Shown here: positions 3,573 through 54,348 of the stretch, piece after piece
Numbering within the stretch: position 1 is the stretch's first letter
How the letters are laid out: each line of letters starts with the position of its first letter
Source of the DNA: Minisyncoccota bacterium
GTDB lineage: Bacteria; Patescibacteriota; Minisyncoccia; Phycocordibacterales; UBA9973
Length of the DNA: 64,000 bases
Direction of reading: 5' to 3'
NCBI GenBank assembly: GCA_041657885.1
Contig: JBBABB010000001.1
Span: forward strand, 1,094-65,093
Notes under the pieces: model-generated
Databases searched by the model: none
Seen by the model: only the letters and a program-made list of their open reading frames with translations
What the model was told of the DNA's origin: nothing
Translations under genes and position numbers: made by a program

Positions 3573-4412
3573 GTGGAATATATAAACAAAGTTTATTTTA
3601 AAGATGCTAGAAAAATGACAGAATTACCAGACAATTCTGTACAGTTAATTGTAACTAGTCCTCCTTATTTCAATATAAAAGATTATTCTCTTGACGGATA
3701 TCAAAAAAATAAAAAAGCTCAAAAAGCAACTGGTCAAATTGGTGATATCGCAGATTATGAAAAATACATTGATGAAATGGTTTTGGTTTGGAAAGAATGT
3801 GAGCGTGTATTAAAACCGAATGGAAAGTTAATAATTAATACACCACTTATGCCGATGTTAAAAAAAAATCTGATCACTCATTACAACAGGCACATTTTTA
3901 ATATTAACAACGACATAGAACACTCAATATTAAAAAAAACTAATTTGTTTTTAATGGATGTTTATTTTTGGAATAGAACGAATCCGAGCAAAAAACTAAT
4001 GTTCGGTAGCTATCCATATCCGCGAAATTTTTATGCTCAAAATACAACAGAGTTTATAACTGTGTTTGTGAAAGACGGAATTCCAGAAAATAATCTCCCA
4101 GCAAAAATTAAAGATAGAAGTAAATTGAGCCAAAAAGAATGGGTAGAATTTACTAAGCAAATTTGGAATATTCCAATCCCCGGCAAAGGCGATTTGGCTT
4201 TTGGAGAACATTCAGCACTAATGCCAGAAGAAATTGTTAGGCGTTGTGTTAGATTATTTACCTTTGTTGAAGATGTTGTCTTAGACCCATTTGCAGGATC
4301 AGGGACTACTTTAAAAGTAGCAAAGGAATTAGAAAGAAATTTTGTCGGGTATGAGATTTCTAAAAGTTATGAGGATATTATAAAATTAAAGTTGCGACCT
4401 AAATTATTTTAA
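3573..4412 (+). CDS. DNA methyltransferase, beta-class amino-MTase (N6-adenine or N4-cytosine); M subunit 1 of a Type II R-M system
   Basis: Motif IV TSPPY lies N-terminal to motif I DPFAGSGTT, which is the beta permutation. The likely true start is ATG at 3615 (MTELPDNS), since the track start at 3573 is a GTG. Confidence 0.85.
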   Translation: MEYINKVYFKDARKMTELPDNSVQLIVTSPPYFNIKDYSLDGYQKNKKAQKATGQIGDIADYEKYIDEMVLVWKECERVLKPNGKLIINTPLMPMLKKNLITHYNRHIFNINNDIEHSILKKTNLFLMDVYFWNRTNPSKKLMFGSYPYPRNFYAQNTTEFITVFVKDGIPENNLPAKIKDRSKLSQKEWVEFTKQIWNIPIPGKGDLAFGEHSALMPEEIVRRCVRLFTFVEDVVLDPFAGSGTTLKVAKELERNFVGYEISKSYEDIIKLKLRPKLF

Positions 4413-4415
4413 TTT

Positions 4416-5198
4416 ATGCTTAAAATTAACAAAATCTATAATTTAGACTGCTTCGACTTTTTAAGTAAAGTTGATGATTCGTCAATCAATCTTGCTGTTA
4501 TTGATCCCCCTTATAATATGAGCAAGGCAGATTGGGATACATTCAAATCACATAAAGACTTTTTGGATTTTACTTACAAATGGATAGACGCATTATTACC
4601 GAAATTAACACAAAATGGAAGTTTGTATATTTTTAACACACCATTTAACTCAGCATATATTTTACAATATCTTACTTCAAAAAATATGGTTTTCCAAAAT
4701 TGGATTACTTGGGACAAAAGAGATGGGCTTGGAACATCAAAAAGAAAATATAGCAATGGACAAGAATCAATACTATTTTTCACAAAATCTGATAAACATA
4801 TTTTTAATTACAACGATATAAGAGTTCCTTATGAATCCACAGACAGAATAGAACACGCCGTTAAAAAAGGAATCTTAAAAAATGGTGAGAGATGGTTTCC
4901 TAACCCGAACGGAAGATTTTGTGGAGAAGTTTGGCACATCACTAGTGAACGACACAAAAGAAAAATAAATGGGAAAGTTCAAAAAATGGAACACTTAACA
5001 CCTAAGCCGTTGGATTTAATTGAAAGAATTGTAAAAGCAAGTTCTAAAAAAGGAGATTTAGTTTTGGATTGCTTCGTCGGTAGCGGAACGACAGCAGTTG
5101 CTTCAAAAATACTAGGTAGAAATTTTTTGTGTTCCGATATAGACAAAAAATATGTTAAATTAGCAGAAAAAAATTTATATTTATATGCCGATAAATAA
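4416..5198 (+). CDS. Second beta-class amino DNA methyltransferase (M subunit 2)
   Basis: IDPPYN (motif IV) is followed C-terminally by DCFVGSGTTAVAS (motif I). It starts 3 nt after the M1 stop. Confidence 0.85.
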   Translation: MLKINKIYNLDCFDFLSKVDDSSINLAVIDPPYNMSKADWDTFKSHKDFLDFTYKWIDALLPKLTQNGSLYIFNTPFNSAYILQYLTSKNMVFQNWITWDKRDGLGTSKRKYSNGQESILFFTKSDKHIFNYNDIRVPYESTDRIEHAVKKGILKNGERWFPNPNGRFCGEVWHITSERHKRKINGKVQKMEHLTPKPLDLIERIVKASSKKGDLVLDCFVGSGTTAVASKILGRNFLCSDIDKKYVKLAEKNLYLYADK

Positions 5199-6441
5199 TA
5201 TCAATCAAGGAAATAAGGCACTAGAATTTATAGATTTTAGAATTAAAGACGACAAATATCGTGGTTCTCGTTCTTCGCAACATAACAGATATATCATGCA
5301 ACAAGTTGTAGATATATTAAAACTTTTTAATCAATATGCTCCAAATAAAATGCTTATGCCTATTCGTACGGCTGATATTTCAAAAAGACCACAAAATACA
5401 GCAGAGGAAGCTACATACGCTCAATTTTGTAATGACGCAAAAGAAAAAACAAAAGGCATAACAAGTAAAGAAGGAATAGGAACGCAAGATGCTATGAGAA
5501 AAAATTTATTTCCCGATTTGCACAGAATGGGACTTATTGTTAGGTATGATAAAGATAAAAAACCAACAGACCCATTTTCAAAACAAGGTGTTAAATATGT
5601 ATCGCTGAGTAATCAAGGACTAAAGTTGATAAAAGGGAAAACTATTCTTGAGCAATACTTTATATTTTCAAAAGGAATAGATAATTTACTTGGTGGTTAT
5701 ATTGACATTATTTTGGATATATTAAGAGATAAAGAGTATGGAATAGATAACCTAAACATTTTTGAATATATGTTTTTTGTTTCAGCAGTAGGAACGGAAA
5801 CAAGTTTTAACAAAAGCACAGATGAAGCAGTCGATTTAATAAAAGAATATAGAAATTTAACATCCACACAAAGAAAATCTGTAATTGAAACTTTAAAAGT
5901 TGAGCTAAATCCTAAAAAGTTTGCAGGAAATAAGACAAAGAAAAGAGATTTTCATAATTGGCATAATAAAGCCGTACAAGTATTTTATCTTCTAAATCAA
6001 ACAGTTTATTTTGAAGTCAGGGGCGATCAATTAGTTCTTAAGGGAGGAATAAATGGTTTTGCTGAAACAGCAATAATAAGCACAAGACTAGATAGATCAT
6101 TAAATGAGAAATACCAGTATTTTGTAAAAAATGAAATTGAAAAAGTAACGGGATTTGAACTTCATCATGTTGTTCCTTTGGCGTGGTCAGAAAGTATCCA
6201 CCATTTCAAATTGTTAGATAAATGGGAAAATATGGTTTATATAGATGCGTTTAGTCATGCAAAAATTACACAAAACAGAAACCGTAATGTAATTATAGAT
6301 TTTGTGAGTGATGACATGACACTAACCGATCATTCAAAAAATCAGATATATTTAAAAGTTCAAGATAATATTGCATATAAACCAACAAACAAGACAGTGA
6401 TGAAAAAGTATAATAATGAATTGCTGAATACGGTGAAATAA
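5185..6441 (+). CDS. Putative restriction endonuclease with a C-terminal HNH-like motif
   Basis: It overlaps the M2 stop by 14 nt. The C-terminus ELHHVVPLAWSE...NMVYIDAFSHAKIT has an HNH-like His-His...Asn...His spacing. The N-terminus shows no recognisable similarity. Confidence 0.5.
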   Translation: MPINNINQGNKALEFIDFRIKDDKYRGSRSSQHNRYIMQQVVDILKLFNQYAPNKMLMPIRTADISKRPQNTAEEATYAQFCNDAKEKTKGITSKEGIGTQDAMRKNLFPDLHRMGLIVRYDKDKKPTDPFSKQGVKYVSLSNQGLKLIKGKTILEQYFIFSKGIDNLLGGYIDIILDILRDKEYGIDNLNIFEYMFFVSAVGTETSFNKSTDEAVDLIKEYRNLTSTQRKSVIETLKVELNPKKFAGNKTKKRDFHNWHNKAVQVFYLLNQTVYFEVRGDQLVLKGGINGFAETAIISTRLDRSLNEKYQYFVKNEIEKVTGFELHHVVPLAWSESIHHFKLLDKWENMVYIDAFSHAKITQNRNRNVIIDFVSDDMTLTDHSKNQIYLKVQDNIAYKPTNKTVMKKYNNELLNTVK

Positions 6442-6452
6442 AAAATCCCCTA

Positions 6453-6798
6453 AAATACTAGTGGGAAAGGTAAATGGCTAACTACTACTTGTGCTTTGTC
6501 TTATCGACAAGCACAAAGGTTTTCGCGTCGCCTCCGTAAGGAGGAACGCGCTCACCTTTAGTTAGAGTAATCTCGCGTTTCGTTCCCGAGACTTGATATT
6601 GCCCTGACTTAGGAGCAGTGCCACCTGTTTTGATTTTAGTCATAACAGTTATTTGCTTAATTCTAATAATCTAGGGGCTTATCGAACCTCTCACCCCCTC
6701 GTTTAAGCTTCGTAGAAGCACAAACGAGGGGGAGGAGGATAAGTTGATCCCATAGAGAATAAAATTCGGCACCTAAGTTTTTCCCACTAGTATTTTAA
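6453..6798. repeat. MITE-like or structured-RNA element bounded by perfect 16-bp terminal inverted repeats (TAAAATACTAGTGGGA)
   Basis: 6453-6468 is the exact reverse complement of 6783-6798. The interior has nested hairpins including GNRA-type loops (cctcc-gtaa-ggagg; ccccctcgttt...aaacgaggggg) and no ORF of 60 aa or more. Confidence 0.5.
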
Positions 6799-6892
6799 AG
6801 GACTTTAATTTTTGAATTATATACTTATTTTAAAATTTTACAATTTCAAGAAAGTGCTTTCTCGTGCGCGAACGTGAGAATGGGTTAAGTGT

Positions 6893-6901
6893 GCTATAAT
6901 A
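6893..6901 (+). promoter_or_regulatory. Extended -10 promoter (TGcTATAAT) upstream of the zinc-ribbon ORF
   Basis: tgctataat matches TGnTATAAT. It overlaps the 3' end of a recurrent 30-nt motif. Confidence 0.35.
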
Positions 6902-6929
6902 TACTTACAACTGAATAGTTCGATCAAGA

Positions 6930-7367
6930 GTGGTGGTAGAGAATTGGCTCGATGACCCCACAGCAACCTGCTTCGGTAAGGTGCTAAATCCAACCAGACA
7001 CGAAAGTGTCAGGAAAGATGTGTTTGTGCCTAGTCCGCACAAAAACTCTTTCCTCTTTATTAGAGGAATTTTTTATTTTATGAAGAAAATACCAGAAGGT
7101 TTAGTTAGGTGTGAAGTATGTGGAGAGTATAAAGGTGAGGTAAAAGAGAAAGACTTAAATTGGGGCGACTCTTGTTTTTACAAAGCAGAAGTAGAAAAGA
7201 GTGAAGAATACCTCTCTGTGTCTTGTCTTTGCGACGGCATCTTATGTCATAAGTGTAAGAAAAATAAAATTCATAGGCCTATATCAAATTCTTATGATGA
7301 GATTGATAATGACATTGGTCATTGGCCGTGGTTCACCGGAATGATGCCATGTAAAGAGTGTAAATAA
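6930..7367 (+). CDS. Small cysteine-rich zinc-ribbon protein; likely real start at ATG ~7080 (MKKIPEGL...)
   Basis: CEVCG...SCLCDGILCHKCKK...PCKECK gives three CxxC pairs. The upstream 150 nt of the track ORF looks like a structured 5' UTR rather than coding sequence. Confidence 0.4.
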   Translation: MVVENWLDDPTATCFGKVLNPTRHESVRKDVFVPSPHKNSFLFIRGIFYFMKKIPEGLVRCEVCGEYKGEVKEKDLNWGDSCFYKAEVEKSEEYLSVSCLCDGILCHKCKKNKIHRPISNSYDEIDNDIGHWPWFTGMMPCKECK

Positions 7368-8337: not shown

Positions 8338-8418
8338 TTTTCGGGGAGTCGCCGTCCTTCTTTTCCTCACGGCGGTTTAGTGCGCGAACGGGAGGGTGGG
8401 TCAAGCACGAGTATTTCC

Positions 8419-8730
8419 GCCTCGGGCATTTCCGCTAGGGTGTCCATGACTAAAGGACGAGTGCCGCCCAGCTGGTGCAATACTAAAATCTAAAGGCGAA
8501 AGCTATACACACTAAACACGGATATGAATAAAGTAGAGTGGGGATGGCGAGGGCAGACTGCTGGTAATCCAGCAGAGCCCGACCCGGGGAGAGGAAACTT
8601 CCTCTCCCCAAGAAGTTGCGGGCAATCTAGTGAACGGCTCATTTACTGGTATTTGAGCCGTTCGGATATTTTGCTTGCCCGCTCATAGGCATCTAGGCAC
8701 TCGTAGCCCTAGCGGAAATGCCCGAGGCGG
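8419..8730. repeat. Second MITE-like or structured element, closed by a perfect 24-bp inverted repeat
   Basis: ccgcctcgggcatttccgctaggg (8420-8443) is the exact reverse complement of 8706-8729. The interior holds hairpins such as gggagagga-aactt-tcctctccc. Confidence 0.5.
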
Positions 8731-8781
8731 ATGCCGAGGGTGCACCTCAAAACTTTAAATAACCACCAAAGTAGAAAAATG

Positions 8782-23994: not shown

Positions 23995-24546
23995 ATGCCA
24001 AAAATAATTTTAGCAGTCGTAGGATTGCCCGGAGCTGGTAAAACGGAAACAGTCAATTATTTAATAAAGAAAAAAAATTGGCCGAAAGTTTATTTCGGTG
24101 ATGTTACTTTAGATGAAGTAAAGAAAAGGGGGCTTGAAGTAAATGAAGTCAATGAGCGAAAAACCCGAGAAGAAATTAGGAAAAATTTAGGAATGGGTGC
24201 TTATGCTATTTTAAATTTACCAAAGATTAAAAAACTTTTTGAAAACGGAAGTGTGGTAGTTGAAAGTTTGTATAGCTGGGAAGAATATATAGAAGTTAAA
24301 AAAGAGTTTGGAGATGATTTCAAAGTTTTAGCTATATATTCTTCTCCAGAAACAAGAATAGCAAGGTTGACTAATCGTCCTATCCGACCTCTAAATAGAG
24401 AAGATGTGATTTTACGTGATTATGCACAGATACAAAATCTTAATATGACTGGACCTATTGCTCGCGCCGACTGGACTATTGTGAACGAAGGGACAAAGGA
24501 AAATTTATATAAACAAATAGATAAAATTCTAGAAAAAATTATTTAA
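23995..24546 (+). CDS. P-loop nucleotide/nucleoside kinase (CoaE/dNMP-kinase-like), function uncertain
   Basis: Walker A GLPGAGKTE. It sits within the dTMP-synthesis cluster. Confidence 0.45.
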   Translation: MPKIILAVVGLPGAGKTETVNYLIKKKNWPKVYFGDVTLDEVKKRGLEVNEVNERKTREEIRKNLGMGAYAILNLPKIKKLFENGSVVVESLYSWEEYIEVKKEFGDDFKVLAIYSSPETRIARLTNRPIRPLNREDVILRDYAQIQNLNMTGPIARADWTIVNEGTKENLYKQIDKILEKII

Positions 24547-24562
24547 AATTAAAAAATAAAAA

Positions 24563-24598
24563 CCTATACAAACTCTGCCATGGCAGAGTTTGTATAGG
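24563..24598. repeat. REP-like 36-bp palindrome, copy 1; acts as a bidirectional terminator between convergent genes
   Basis: cctatacaaactctgccatggcagagtttgtatagg is a perfect palindrome. Near-identical copies lie at 28823 and 29367. Confidence 0.6.
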
Positions 24599-24601
24599 TT
24601 T

Positions 24602-25102
24602 TTATTTTCTCTTATATTCCGCAAATGACAATCTATATTTATTTTTCTCATCAGCTTCGTGTTTTTCTTCGGAGATTTTTTGCCATTTAGTCATATCAAT
24701 TTGAGGGAAGAAAGTATCGGCATCGGGGAATTCTACTTCCACATGAGTAATATAAAGCTTATCCACTTTGTCCATGAATAGTTTGTATATTTGTCCTCCG
24801 CCGATTATAAAACATTCACTATCTTCCGGTTCTGTTTTTTCAAGTAATTCCATGAGTTCATCTACCCCGTATACTATTTCAATTCCTTCACTTTTAAAAT
24901 CAGCATCTTTTGTAAGAATTATATTTCGGCGATTTGGAAGTGGTCGCCCAATAGATTCAAAAGTTTTTTGCCCCATTATTACTGTGTGTCCACTTGTGGT
25001 CTCTCTGAAATGCTTCATGTCAGCAGGTAAATCCCAAAGAAGGGCATTTCCTTTTCCAATTTCATTATTTTTTCCTATGGCTGATATTATTGATAGAATC
25101 AT
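24602..25102 (-). CDS. folA: Dihydrofolate reductase
   Basis: IAAIGKNNEIG..LPW (substituted LLW here) and GRKTFESIGRPLPNRRNIILT. Confidence 0.85.
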   Translation of the reverse strand: MILSIISAIGKNNEIGKGNALLWDLPADMKHFRETTSGHTVIMGQKTFESIGRPLPNRRNIILTKDADFKSEGIEIVYGVDELMELLEKTEPEDSECFIIGGGQIYKLFMDKVDKLYITHVEVEFPDADTFFPQIDMTKWQKISEEKHEADEKNKYRLSFAEYKRK

Positions 25103-28813: not shown

Positions 28814-28822
28814 ATATAAAAA

Positions 28823-28858
28823 CCTATACATTTTCTGCCATGGCAGAGAATGTATAGG
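28823..28858. repeat. REP-like palindrome, copy 2
   Basis: cctatacattttctgccatggcagagaatgtatagg shares the core CTCTGCCATGGCAGAG with copies 1 and 3 and has compensatory arm changes. Confidence 0.6.
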
Positions 28859-28861
28859 TTT

Positions 28862-29338
28862 TTATTTGTATGGTTTTTCTAATTTGAAAGTTTTAATACA
28901 CTTATCTAATTTAATTTCCTTAATATAATCTTTAAATTCTTTTGGCATAGGAGATGGTCCCACCCAAACACTTTTTTGAATCATAATGTAATTAAATTTT
29001 TTCAAATGCCATCTCAACCATTCCCTATGAGCTTTCTTCTCTGTTGGTACATCAAACATCACCAATAGAGTTTTATCTTTGGAAATATTTTCTGGTCGAT
29101 CGAATTGTTTTAATGAATCAAATTTTCTTTTCACATATTCTTTCCCATATTTTGATAAAACTATTCCCGCCAATTCTTTTTCAATTAAACCTCTTTTCCT
29201 CAATCTACTTATAGTGTTATACATGACATCTTTTTTGTATTTCTTAAAACGGGGGATTCCAAAAAGATTTACCCTAACTCCTTTGTAGTTAAGTTCGGTA
29301 TTCCACAACTCTTCTAATAGTTCACTTACAATAGACAT
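28862..29338 (-). CDS. Small winged-HTH plus Cas2/VapD-like-pattern protein (paralog A)
   Basis: N-terminal YNTISRLRKRGLIEK (wHTH-like) and C-terminal LLVMFDVPTEKKAHREWLRWHLKKFNYIMIQKSVWVG. The ORF at 40491 is a paralog. The gene is bracketed by REP-like palindromes. Confidence 0.35.
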   Translation of the reverse strand: MSIVSELLEELWNTELNYKGVRVNLFGIPRFKKYKKDVMYNTISRLRKRGLIEKELAGIVLSKYGKEYVKRKFDSLKQFDRPENISKDKTLLVMFDVPTEKKAHREWLRWHLKKFNYIMIQKSVWVGPSPMPKEFKDYIKEIKLDKCIKTFKLEKPYK

Positions 29339-54234: not shown

Positions 54235-54272
54235 TAAGAATTAAAAATTAATAATTAAAAATTAAATGCAAA
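54235..54272. repeat. Degenerate AATTAAN heptamer array (about 5 copies)
   Basis: aattaag aattaaa aattaat aattaaa aattaaa. Confidence 0.6.
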
Positions 54273-54274
54273 AT

Positions 54275-54299
54275 GCCCCCGAACCTACGGTTCGGGGGC
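54275..54299 (+). terminator. Rho-independent terminator
   Basis: gcccccgaacc tac ggttcgggggc followed by a T-rich run. Confidence 0.7.
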
Positions 54300-54348
54300 A
54301 TTTTAATTTGCAATAAATATACAGGGGTGTATTTTTTGCAAATTATTT

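Follow-up and report, generated by a model that had tools for sequence, protein, structure and literature searches.

Organization of the Locus

In a 64,000-nucleotide (nt) stretch of contig JBBABB010000001.1 from a Minisyncoccota bacterium of the Patescibacteria group (assembly GCA_041657885.1; hereafter the window, to whose numbering all coordinates refer), a small open reading frame (ORF) on the minus strand is enclosed between the two arms of a long inverted repeat, and here we describe the conservation of this arrangement as an RNA structure. The ORF has 52 codons plus a stop (6643..6485) and encodes the protein MTKIKTGGTAPKSGQYQVSGTKREITLTKGERVPPYGGDAKTFVLVDKTKHK from an AU-rich start region without a Shine-Dalgarno sequence. 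Read along the minus strand, the 5' arm of the closing helix P1 (AAAGUCCUUUAAAAUACUAGUGGGAAA, 6780..6806) is followed by a structured leader, a rod formed by the helices P3 (here CUAUGGG / CCCCUAG) and P2 (6660..6764, covered by the covariance model R1 described below), then by the ORF and finally by the 3' arm of P1 (UUUCCCACUAGUAUUUUAGGGGAUUUU, 6442..6468), which begins 16 nt past the stop codon; P1 comprises 24 consensus pairs. The P2 hairpin (6684..6741) is formed by pairing of the C-rich strand UCCUCCUCCCCCUCGUUU with the G-rich strand AAACGAGGGGGUGAGAGG. A further hairpin, UUGUC-GAUAA-GACAA (6496..6510), lies within the ORF and spans the codons Leu-Val-Asp-Lys-Thr.

An earlier note, made from the sequence alone, had described this place as an element with perfect 16-bp terminal inverted repeats, an RNA-like interior, and no ORF. 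The inverted repeat exists, at positions shifted by 2 and 1 nt from those given: TAAAATACTAGTGGGA occupies 6451-6466 and its reverse complement 6782-6797. The perfect repeat is 18 nt long (6451-6468 and 6780-6797) and lengthens to 27 nt (6442-6468 and 6780-6806) with 89% DNA complementarity and three mismatches, all of which are G-U pairs in the minus-strand RNA and A-C clashes in the plus-strand RNA; the bases outside the 18-nt core continue the helix via these G-U pairs and are not direct repeats. A perfect 16-nt inverted repeat within 500 nt arose in seven of 200 first-order Markov simulations of the window (mean 0.035), and a search for further copies of the arms in the window yielded nothing beyond chance-level matches with three mismatches. 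The 11-bp stem noticed in the interior was confirmed, with ccccctcgttt (6694-6704) pairing with aaacgaggggg (6722-6732), and is contained with an extension in P2; the gcttc-gta-gaagc hairpin that it encloses has a loop of 3 nt, not 4. The second hairpin proposed there, cctcc-gtaa-ggagg, is also present, but at a position that is coding sequence (the codons for PPYGG), and it was dropped as an RNA motif, being the coding sequence of a conserved PPYGG and retained only where those residues are retained. The absence of an ORF is contradicted by the minus-strand frame running from ATG 6643 to TAG 6485. The flanks had been described correctly: a type II restriction nuclease gene ends at 6441, and on the other side TGcTATAAT is present, which by its position is likely the promoter of an S-adenosylmethionine (SAM) riboswitch (6918-7024).

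Covariation in the Closing Helix and the Leader

A search of 185,579 species genomes, one per species, produced 109 loci with relatives of the small ORF, 80 of which are listed, and the sequences on either side of each homologous ORF were examined for 5'/3' pairing. Uninterrupted helices of 13-29 bp were found in 38 units (the window and 37 other loci). In these helix-bearing units the 5' arm lies at approximately -160 to -137 from the ATG and ends 127-141 nt before it, and the 3' arm starts 10-21 nt past the stop codon. The arm sequences diverge between lineages yet stay complementary, as exemplified by the 5' arms AAATACTAGTGGGA, AAATGCTAGCGGGA, AAATGCCAGCAAGA, AAAAACTGGCGGGGA, and GATGCCAGCGAGA. 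When the energy of the RNA duplex was compared with that of shuffled controls, about 45 of the 80 loci reached z <= -3, and in most of the homologues from Clostridia and Chloroflexi the value was close to 0. The layout common to about 45 of the 80 loci, mostly of the Patescibacteria type, consists of a -10 box, the 5' arm, a structured leader of about 136 nt, the ORF, and the 3' arm.

Compensatory changes were counted in an alignment of 32 complete units using RNAalifold and explicit pair counting. In P1, 23 of the 24 pairs have changes on both sides, with 88-96% of the cells paired, and in P2 the same holds for 12 of the 16 pairs (89% of cells paired). Helix P3 (CUAGGGG / CCCCUAG) is weaker, with changes on both sides in six of seven pairs and 74% of cells paired. 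The hairpin within the ORF has five pairs, two of them with changes on both sides, and 92.5% of cells paired; its codons CUN GUY GAU AAR ACN covary at third positions that are synonymous, two of the pairs having 17 and 9 double changes. For the whole structure 85.9% of cells are paired, compared to 44-54% when the partners are slid by one to three columns, and none of 500 shuffles reached the observed pairing values.

The P1 cells of the alignment contain 96 G-U against 10 A-C combinations; the unit of the window has a fold energy of -155.9 kcal/mol (z -11.4) on the minus strand versus -143.2 kcal/mol on the plus strand; and the covariance model R1, which represents the leader, gives 105.5 bits for the minus strand versus 37.7 bits for the plus strand. 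The G-U excess, the fold energy, and the leader score together establish that the RNA is read from the strand of the ORF. Model R1 has a single match per locus, always just 5' of the ORF, in the window and in 37 other loci, nine of which were outside the set used to build the model; over the 511 kb scanned it has no matches elsewhere and none at the Clostridia or Chloroflexi loci. On the minus strand, the helices are under selection at the RNA level; the leader occurs specifically with this gene, and the architecture is conserved in Patescibacteria. At one locus, in a metagenome-assembled genome (MAG) labeled 'Bacilli' (L061), a 17-bp closing helix surrounds a different leader with a canonical Shine-Dalgarno sequence; hence the clamp formed by the closing helix is more deeply conserved than the leader.

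The reading of the element as a structured non-coding RNA with a long closing helix, which was one of the two alternatives of the earlier note, is thus right as to the structure, since both the 11-bp stem and the closing helix are conserved at the RNA level, and wrong as to its nature: it is a minus-strand mRNA with a structured leader. The Rfam scan proposed at that time gave no confident match. At the gathering threshold Rfam 15 recognizes only the SAM riboswitch and three tRNAs in the whole window, and relaxing the cut-off to E <= 10 for 6380-6930 adds nothing but noise from microRNA or rRNA models (the microRNA-model noise at E >= 0.057). Two further candidates were rejected. A DNA cruciform or recombination site as the primary role was dropped, the mismatches being strand-specific G-U pairs. 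The msr-msd of a retron, with a1/a2 repeats, was set aside in view of the conserved ORF and of the lack of a reverse transcriptase among the recurrent or individually annotated neighbors, although no targeted search for one was made.

The Encoded Protein

The ORF is a real conserved gene with a coding substitution signature, as differences from the column majority in 18 close sequences fall on codon positions 1, 2, and 3 in the numbers 85, 74, and 276. Among 5.8 billion proteins searched, 59 cluster representatives have 67-96% identity to the peptide, nearly all of them 52-58 residues long. A profile search (E <= 0.001) extends the family to 271 representatives at 50% identity, mostly of 50-90 residues, a few of which have three or four tandem copies of the domain. 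Relatives of 270-360 residues with two to four tandem copies of the 50-residue domain were also noted (P0060-P0062 and P0078). The closer genomic loci mostly bear labels of the Patescibacteria group (Woesebacteria, Paceibacteria/Minisyncoccia, Magasanikbacteria, and MAGs labeled Saccharibacteria), and weaker relatives occur in Clostridia and Chloroflexi. Five contigs from IMG/VR classified as viral (L081-L085) encode relatives of the protein, and one of them (L081) has the closing helix and the leader as well.

The protein is basic and hydrophilic, with 11 Lys and Arg against 4 Asp and Glu residues, a net charge of about +7, and a grand average of hydropathicity (GRAVY) of -0.85; its most hydrophobic 15-residue window scores 0.27, and a membrane segment is absent. 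AlphaFold2 models it as four beta strands with a predicted local distance difference test score (pLDDT) of 88. A sequence-profile search of PDB found no match, and the best hit of this model in a Foldseek search against PDB (E 1.5) is meaningless. The protein belongs to no NCBIfam family and matches no PADLOC 2.0 model at E <= 0.001, only neighboring genes doing so; in PHROGs it weakly resembles two families of unknown function. The Pfam family YjzC-like (PF14168) is similar in size and shares the pattern G-x-x-A-P-x-S-G-x-Y ... L-x-K-G-x-R-x-P-P, but the protein scores below its gathering threshold (18 bits against 25; E 0.0037). Sub-threshold YjzC matches were also given by 18 of 25 homologues, the best at E 2e-4. 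At most, the protein is a distant relative of the YjzC-like family.

Homology Between Genomes Bounded by the Arms

The window matches the loci L001, L004, and L019 from AAGTCC to GGGGATTT and nowhere else. The same is seen in three pairs of loci with units 90-95% identical to each other (L007/L009, L004/L006, and L017/L018), which lose homology right past the U-tract and have different restriction-modification (R-M) systems; their upstream homology reaches only 70-85 nt. No homology was found between the neighboring proteins of the units. At four-fold degenerate sites, two of 29 differ between the window and L001, and six of 25 differ between L001 (Woeseibacteriota) and L004 (Minisyncoccota). 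Strong constraint of synonymous sites by the RNA would fit these observations, as would horizontal movement of the unit between phyla of the candidate phyla radiation (CPR) or very fast replacement of the flanks. Of the recent mobility suggested earlier, one part can be retained, as homology between genomes stops exactly at both arms and the flanks are unrelated; nothing points to transposition.

A conserved syntenic neighbor that could explain the function was sought and rejected, since the flanks differ on both sides even at 90-95% unit identity; only a helix-turn-helix protein (five loci) and a second structured RNA, described below, recur upstream. The downstream ORFs of about 160 residues in L005, L007, and L013 were rejected as a common neighbor because they are not homologous to each other.

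Transcript Ends and Translation Start

Upstream of the 5' arm lies a promoter-like site on the minus strand (6843..6816), consisting of TTGTAA (6843-6838), a 16-nt spacer, and TATAAT (6821-6816), with 10 of 12 matches in a consensus scan. The -10 box of the window ends about 10 nt before the first paired base. A -10-like hexamer precedes the first paired base in 30 of the 32 aligned units, at a distance of 5-16 nt in 27 of them, and several units have an upstream TG of the extended -10 type. This spacing places the expected 5' end of the RNA at the foot of the helix.

At the opposite end, a U-tract (UUUUUUAUUU, 6436..6445, minus strand) starts within the outermost part of the 3' arm and runs beyond it, and also overlaps the stop codon of the nuclease gene (6439-6441). 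The 3' side of the unit reads GGGGAUUUUUUAUUU, the first U residues pairing with the 5'-terminal A residues. The T-rich tail contains on average about 8.7 T in 16 nt in the closest relatives and is weaker or missing in distant members. A terminator scan found no local G+C-rich terminator hairpin on the minus strand, and apart from P1, whose arms are separated by 311 nt, no helix abuts the U-tract.

The AU-rich region of the start codon, from P3 to the first codons, is unpaired in both consensus folds. The lack of a Shine-Dalgarno sequence before the small ORF is normal for this genome, as such a motif precedes only six of the 51 long ORFs of the window, and many ATGs of the window lie 5-10 nt past a TATAAT, which suggests leaderless mRNAs. 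Leaderless or Shine-Dalgarno-independent initiation thus seems to be the rule in this genome, and for this reason a structured leader of 136 nt is unusual here. The idea that the C-rich strand of the leader mimics an anti-Shine-Dalgarno sequence or sequesters a Shine-Dalgarno sequence was dropped in view of the same count, and because the G-rich strand is about 50 nt from the AUG.

An antisense -10-like hexamer, CTRATAAT (plus strand, approximately 6663-6670 in the window; alignment columns 165-170), keeps its position in 18 of the 32 units, with no antisense terminator evident. It may be the promoter of an antisense RNA that spans the leader; alternatively, it may simply reflect an AUUAU conserved in the sense RNA, of which it is the complement.

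Restriction-Modification and Defense Genes at the Unit

In the window, the unit adjoins a defense island that comprises an OLD/AbiL-like (OLD/AbiLi/AriA-like) ATPase-Toprim gene (1334-2923), two N6/N4 DNA methyltransferase genes (3573-4412 and 4416-5198), and the type II restriction nuclease gene (5185-6441, plus strand; PADLOC REase_II, 4.6e-123), which is convergent to the small ORF and whose stop codon overlaps the U-tract. R-M genes of diverse kinds adjoin the unit in at least 22 of the 38 helix-bearing loci, and in most loci of the close group the adjoining gene is convergent and ends tens of nucleotides past the 3' arm. These neighbors include an Eco57I/MmeI-like type IIG enzyme (L005), AlwI (L007 and L016), M and S subunits of type I systems (L009 and L017), a type ISP enzyme (L015), and GmrSD-HNH (L025). 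C5 methyltransferases are accompanied by NOV_C in L014, by HNH in L002, and by a LlaMI nuclease in L011, and C5 methyltransferases adjoin the unit also in L001, L010, L024, L029, L030, and L062; N6/N4 methyltransferases do so in L018, L019, L022, L023, and L042. In 35 helix-bearing loci, 150 neighbor ORFs were compared with the models: one N6/N4 methyltransferase model matched 12 of them, and C5 methyltransferase models matched eight; as these sets may overlap, methyltransferases number at least 12 and up to 20. Of the 30 PADLOC families matched by a control set of 55 other ORFs of the window, the 25 with the most matches include no methyltransferase or nuclease family.

At five loci (L022, L023, L029, L032, and L037) lexA lies on the strand of the small ORF, 165-181 nt upstream of it. 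A DNA methyltransferase gene precedes lexA in four of the five (the contig of L032 ends too near to tell), and two conserved genes of unknown function follow the unit in four of the five (not in L023). In Clostridia, a homologue lacking the clamp lies downstream of an AbiLi-like AAA_21 ATPase gene at 11 loci (L044, L046, L048, L053-L055, L065, and others), and at four loci the homologue is situated 9-13 nt before a DUF1883-TIR gene (ThsB-like, PDC-S66). This gene order looks like a candidate three-gene defense operon.

A second perfect inverted repeat, of 25 nt (8416-8440 and 8707-8731, plus strand), closes a G+C-rich structured region of about 316 nt in the window (8416-8731; minimum free energy -163.9 kcal/mol, z -11.2). 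This region has no credible ORF, no Rfam match, and no call as a transfer-messenger RNA (tmRNA) in a tmRNA/tRNA scan. In L003, L005, L006, and L018, homologues of this region lie upstream of the small-ORF unit in divergent orientation. The region looks like an undescribed clamped non-coding RNA syntenic with the unit.

Possible Role of the Clamp

We favor, with only slightly better than even confidence, the explanation that the locus is an autonomous single-gene unit of about 370 nt on the minus strand (from approximately 6809 to 6436), in which the clamp shields both ends of the mRNA and, in close relatives, doubles as the terminator stem. Transcription would start a few bases before the 5' arm, and the RNA would carry, in this order, the leader rod of about 136 nt with P3 and P2, the unpaired AU-rich start, the ORF with its hairpin, and the 3' arm, which would pair with the very 5' end to form a helix of 24-27 bp ending in the U-tract. 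The clamp would hide the 5' end from 5'-end-dependent ribonucleases (RNases) and the 3' end from 3' exonucleases, and the outcome would be a long-lived mRNA that is still closed during translation; ribosomes would reach the stop codon 10-20 nt before the helix and would not have to open it. In close relatives, the helix and the U-tract would serve as the sole available terminator stem.

A related arrangement is known in Bacillus subtilis, where a 14-bp pairing between the 5' and 3' untranslated regions (UTRs) of the hbs mRNA modulates RNase Y cleavage in the leader (PMC5737220). The likeness extends to the small basic protein encoded, the structured leader, and the long-range pairing of the UTRs that modulates RNase access. 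However, the pairing in hbs is shorter and internal to the UTRs, and hbs depends on a strong Shine-Dalgarno sequence and the initiating ribosome, whereas the unit described here pairs its very ends, has no Shine-Dalgarno sequence, and carries a U-tract after the 3' arm. With intrinsic bidirectional terminators it shares the order of A-tract, helix, and U-tract between convergent genes, but here the 'loop' of 311 nt holds a whole gene and a local G+C-rich hairpin is lacking.

Several points weigh against this explanation. We know of no precedent for a terminator with a 311-nt 'loop', and, since the U-tract is missing in distant members, termination cannot account for the helix in all members. 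Near-perfect duplexes of such length (24-27 bp) are also textbook substrates of RNase III, which would destabilize the mRNA. The transcript start and 3' end we infer from consensus motifs only. The stability model also leaves unaccounted for the leader rod, the link to R-M genes, and the coincidence of the homologous segment with the transcript. Finally, two loci (L015:3001-3165 and L019:308-472) are interrupted in frame by TAA or TAG, at codons 23 and 25, and retain the closing helix and the leader; these could represent pseudogenes or errors of assembly, or they could hint at a role of the RNA in its own right.

Susceptibility to RNase III is the core of another explanation, possible in our view though doubtful, namely that the helix of 24-27 bp exists for RNase III cutting, either in the maturation of the mRNA, which would leave a shorter clamp, or in its regulated destruction, with antisense read-through adding duplex. 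Bacterial RNase III requires about two helical turns of double-stranded RNA; the length and near-perfect pairing of the helix are conserved, and at 24-27 bp it offers the structural prerequisite for the predicted cleavage. The nuclease gene stops inside the U-tract of the unit, and the sole nearby terminator-like site on the plus strand, a weak one, lies inside the unit (6577-6592), so that read-through from the R-M operon, before whose end toward the unit no convincing terminator is seen, would be antisense to the small mRNA; in most loci of the close group the convergent genes likewise end within tens of nucleotides of the 3' arm. In rRNAs and in the early mRNAs of phage T7, RNase III stalks of about 20-30 bp enclose hundreds of nucleotides or more and are removed from longer precursors, the processing leaving a shorter clamp, and the unit resembles them in forming a long duplex from sequences that flank a functional RNA. 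In contrast to those stalks, the one described here looks like a part of the mature RNA, since the promoter and the U-tract coincide with its ends; with the promoter directly at the base of the helix there is no 5' precursor that needs trimming, and many G-U pairs are tolerated.

The genomic company of the unit suggests that it could encode the locked effector of a defense or addiction module, a toxin or a regulator linked to the adjoining R-M or defense genes, whose stable mRNA the clamp would keep inert until processing, phage attack, or DNA damage. The hok mRNA is held by a long-distance clamp between its 5' and 3' ends. For the aapA1 toxin mRNA, a long-distance 5'-3' interaction has been reported (PMC5416894). 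In common with these two systems, the unit has a short coding region within a compact, highly structured mRNA whose extreme 5' end pairs with its 3' end, a structure kept via covariation, and addiction or defense genes as neighbors. In the same direction point the R-M genes in at least 22 of the 38 helix-bearing loci, the DNA methyltransferases among the neighbor ORFs as set against the control ORFs, lexA immediately upstream in five loci, the position of the Clostridia homologue between the AbiLi-like ATPase gene (11 loci) and the DUF1883-TIR gene (four loci), and the antisense hexamer in 18 of the 32 units. There are differences as well, and we find this explanation unlikely. By sequence and predicted fold the protein is hydrophilic and basic (GRAVY -0.85), with no membrane segment, and is not a membrane peptide; it matches no PADLOC model. 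The start region is open rather than sequestered, since the consensus leaves it unpaired, and it lacks a Shine-Dalgarno sequence that the fold could hide. At 24-27 bp the helix exceeds those of hok and aapA1 in length, an antitoxin RNA is only a candidate with no evident terminator, and the unit is present in one copy per genome and highly conserved across the super-phylum.

Also rather improbable, in our estimation, is a novel type of RNA-gated module that travels with the R-M and defense islands of CPR bacteria. Here the cassette would equal the transcript and spread between phyla without its flanks, and the clamp, possibly together with antisense read-through, would set the time at which a small, basic protein that binds nucleic acids is produced. 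The trigger could be phage attack, DNA damage (in view of the LexA neighbor in some loci), or the loss or alteration of the neighboring R-M system.

There is little probability that the RNA comes first, as a structured or dual-function RNA or as a recombination anchor at the edge of the R-M island, with the ORF secondary. Such a role would agree with the extent of homology, from the first base of the 5' arm through the 3' arm, with the divergence of units 90-95% identical right past the U-tract into different R-M systems, with four-fold sites far from saturated across CPR phyla (six of 25 between L001 and L004), with the helix retained in L015 and L019 despite their nonsense codons, and with the second clamped structured RNA, nearby and syntenic. 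But the coding signature is strong, the nonsense codons may be assembly errors, and the homologues in Clostridia and Chloroflexi, which lack the RNA structure, indicate that the protein has a function of its own.

The miniature inverted-repeat transposable element (MITE) of the earlier note, or any other remnant of a DNA transposon with terminal repeats as transposase binding sites, is highly improbable and for practical purposes refuted: the repeats are perfect over 18 nt and bound the homology blocks between unrelated flanks, but the arms are present once in the window and covary between species with strand-specific G-U pairs, which protein-binding terminal repeats would not do, a scan of 511 kb with the leader model brings up no additional copies, no direct repeats or target-site duplications occur beside the arms in the window or at the junctions of close pairs, and the unit itself has a start close to its promoter, a conserved ORF whose substitutions follow a coding pattern, and a U-tract. 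The search for extra copies gave one copy per genome except in a single MAG, which contains two of the 80 listed loci; the screen found the long closing helix in neither of these two copies, though the pairing test is significant in both.

The principle of 5'-3' pairing in mRNAs is known, and the present case is an unusually well-supported one in an unusual lineage and context. End-to-end pairing of bacterial mRNAs is, to our knowledge, documented in only a few cases (hok, the aapA toxin mRNAs, hbs, and icaR). The unit is among the best comparatively supported examples, with dozens of independent compensatory changes, some of them at synonymous codon positions, and its long-range pairing encloses an entire gene. 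We found no prior description of it in the literature on YjzC, on structured RNAs in CPR bacteria, or on small proteins near R-M genes in Patescibacteria, and no literature on YjzC itself; the ORF is unnamed or labeled 'hypothetical protein' in the sources that hold it, and the unit is not in Rfam 15. The host lineage belongs to the largely uncultured Patescibacteria, in which RNA-level regulation is almost unstudied. The adjacency to R-M genes, together with the coincidence of homology and transcript, gives a handle on how the defense islands of reduced genomes are organized and exchanged, and the unit offers another on the role of the widespread YjzC-like small proteins.

Other Features of the Window

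The SAM riboswitch (6918-7024, 56 bits) is followed by a terminator (7050-7068) and by an ORF for a cysteine-rich protein of about 95 residues (MKKIPEGLVRCEVCGEYKG...), the whole region spanning 6918-7367 on the plus strand; the ORF is not recognizable as a methionine or SAM gene. A motif GTGCGCGAACG(T/G)GAG...GGGT(T/C)AAG is common to the segments 6864-6900 and 8380-8415 (plus strand), which lie upstream of the riboswitch and of the second structured RNA, respectively, and it may represent a common regulatory or promoter element. Perfect local palindromic hairpins were observed at 24553-24608 (28 bp), 28816-28865 (17 bp), and 54270-54304 (16 bp). The first of them, located between the convergent ORFs 23995-24546 (plus strand) and 24602-25102 (minus strand), is probably a strong bidirectional terminator.

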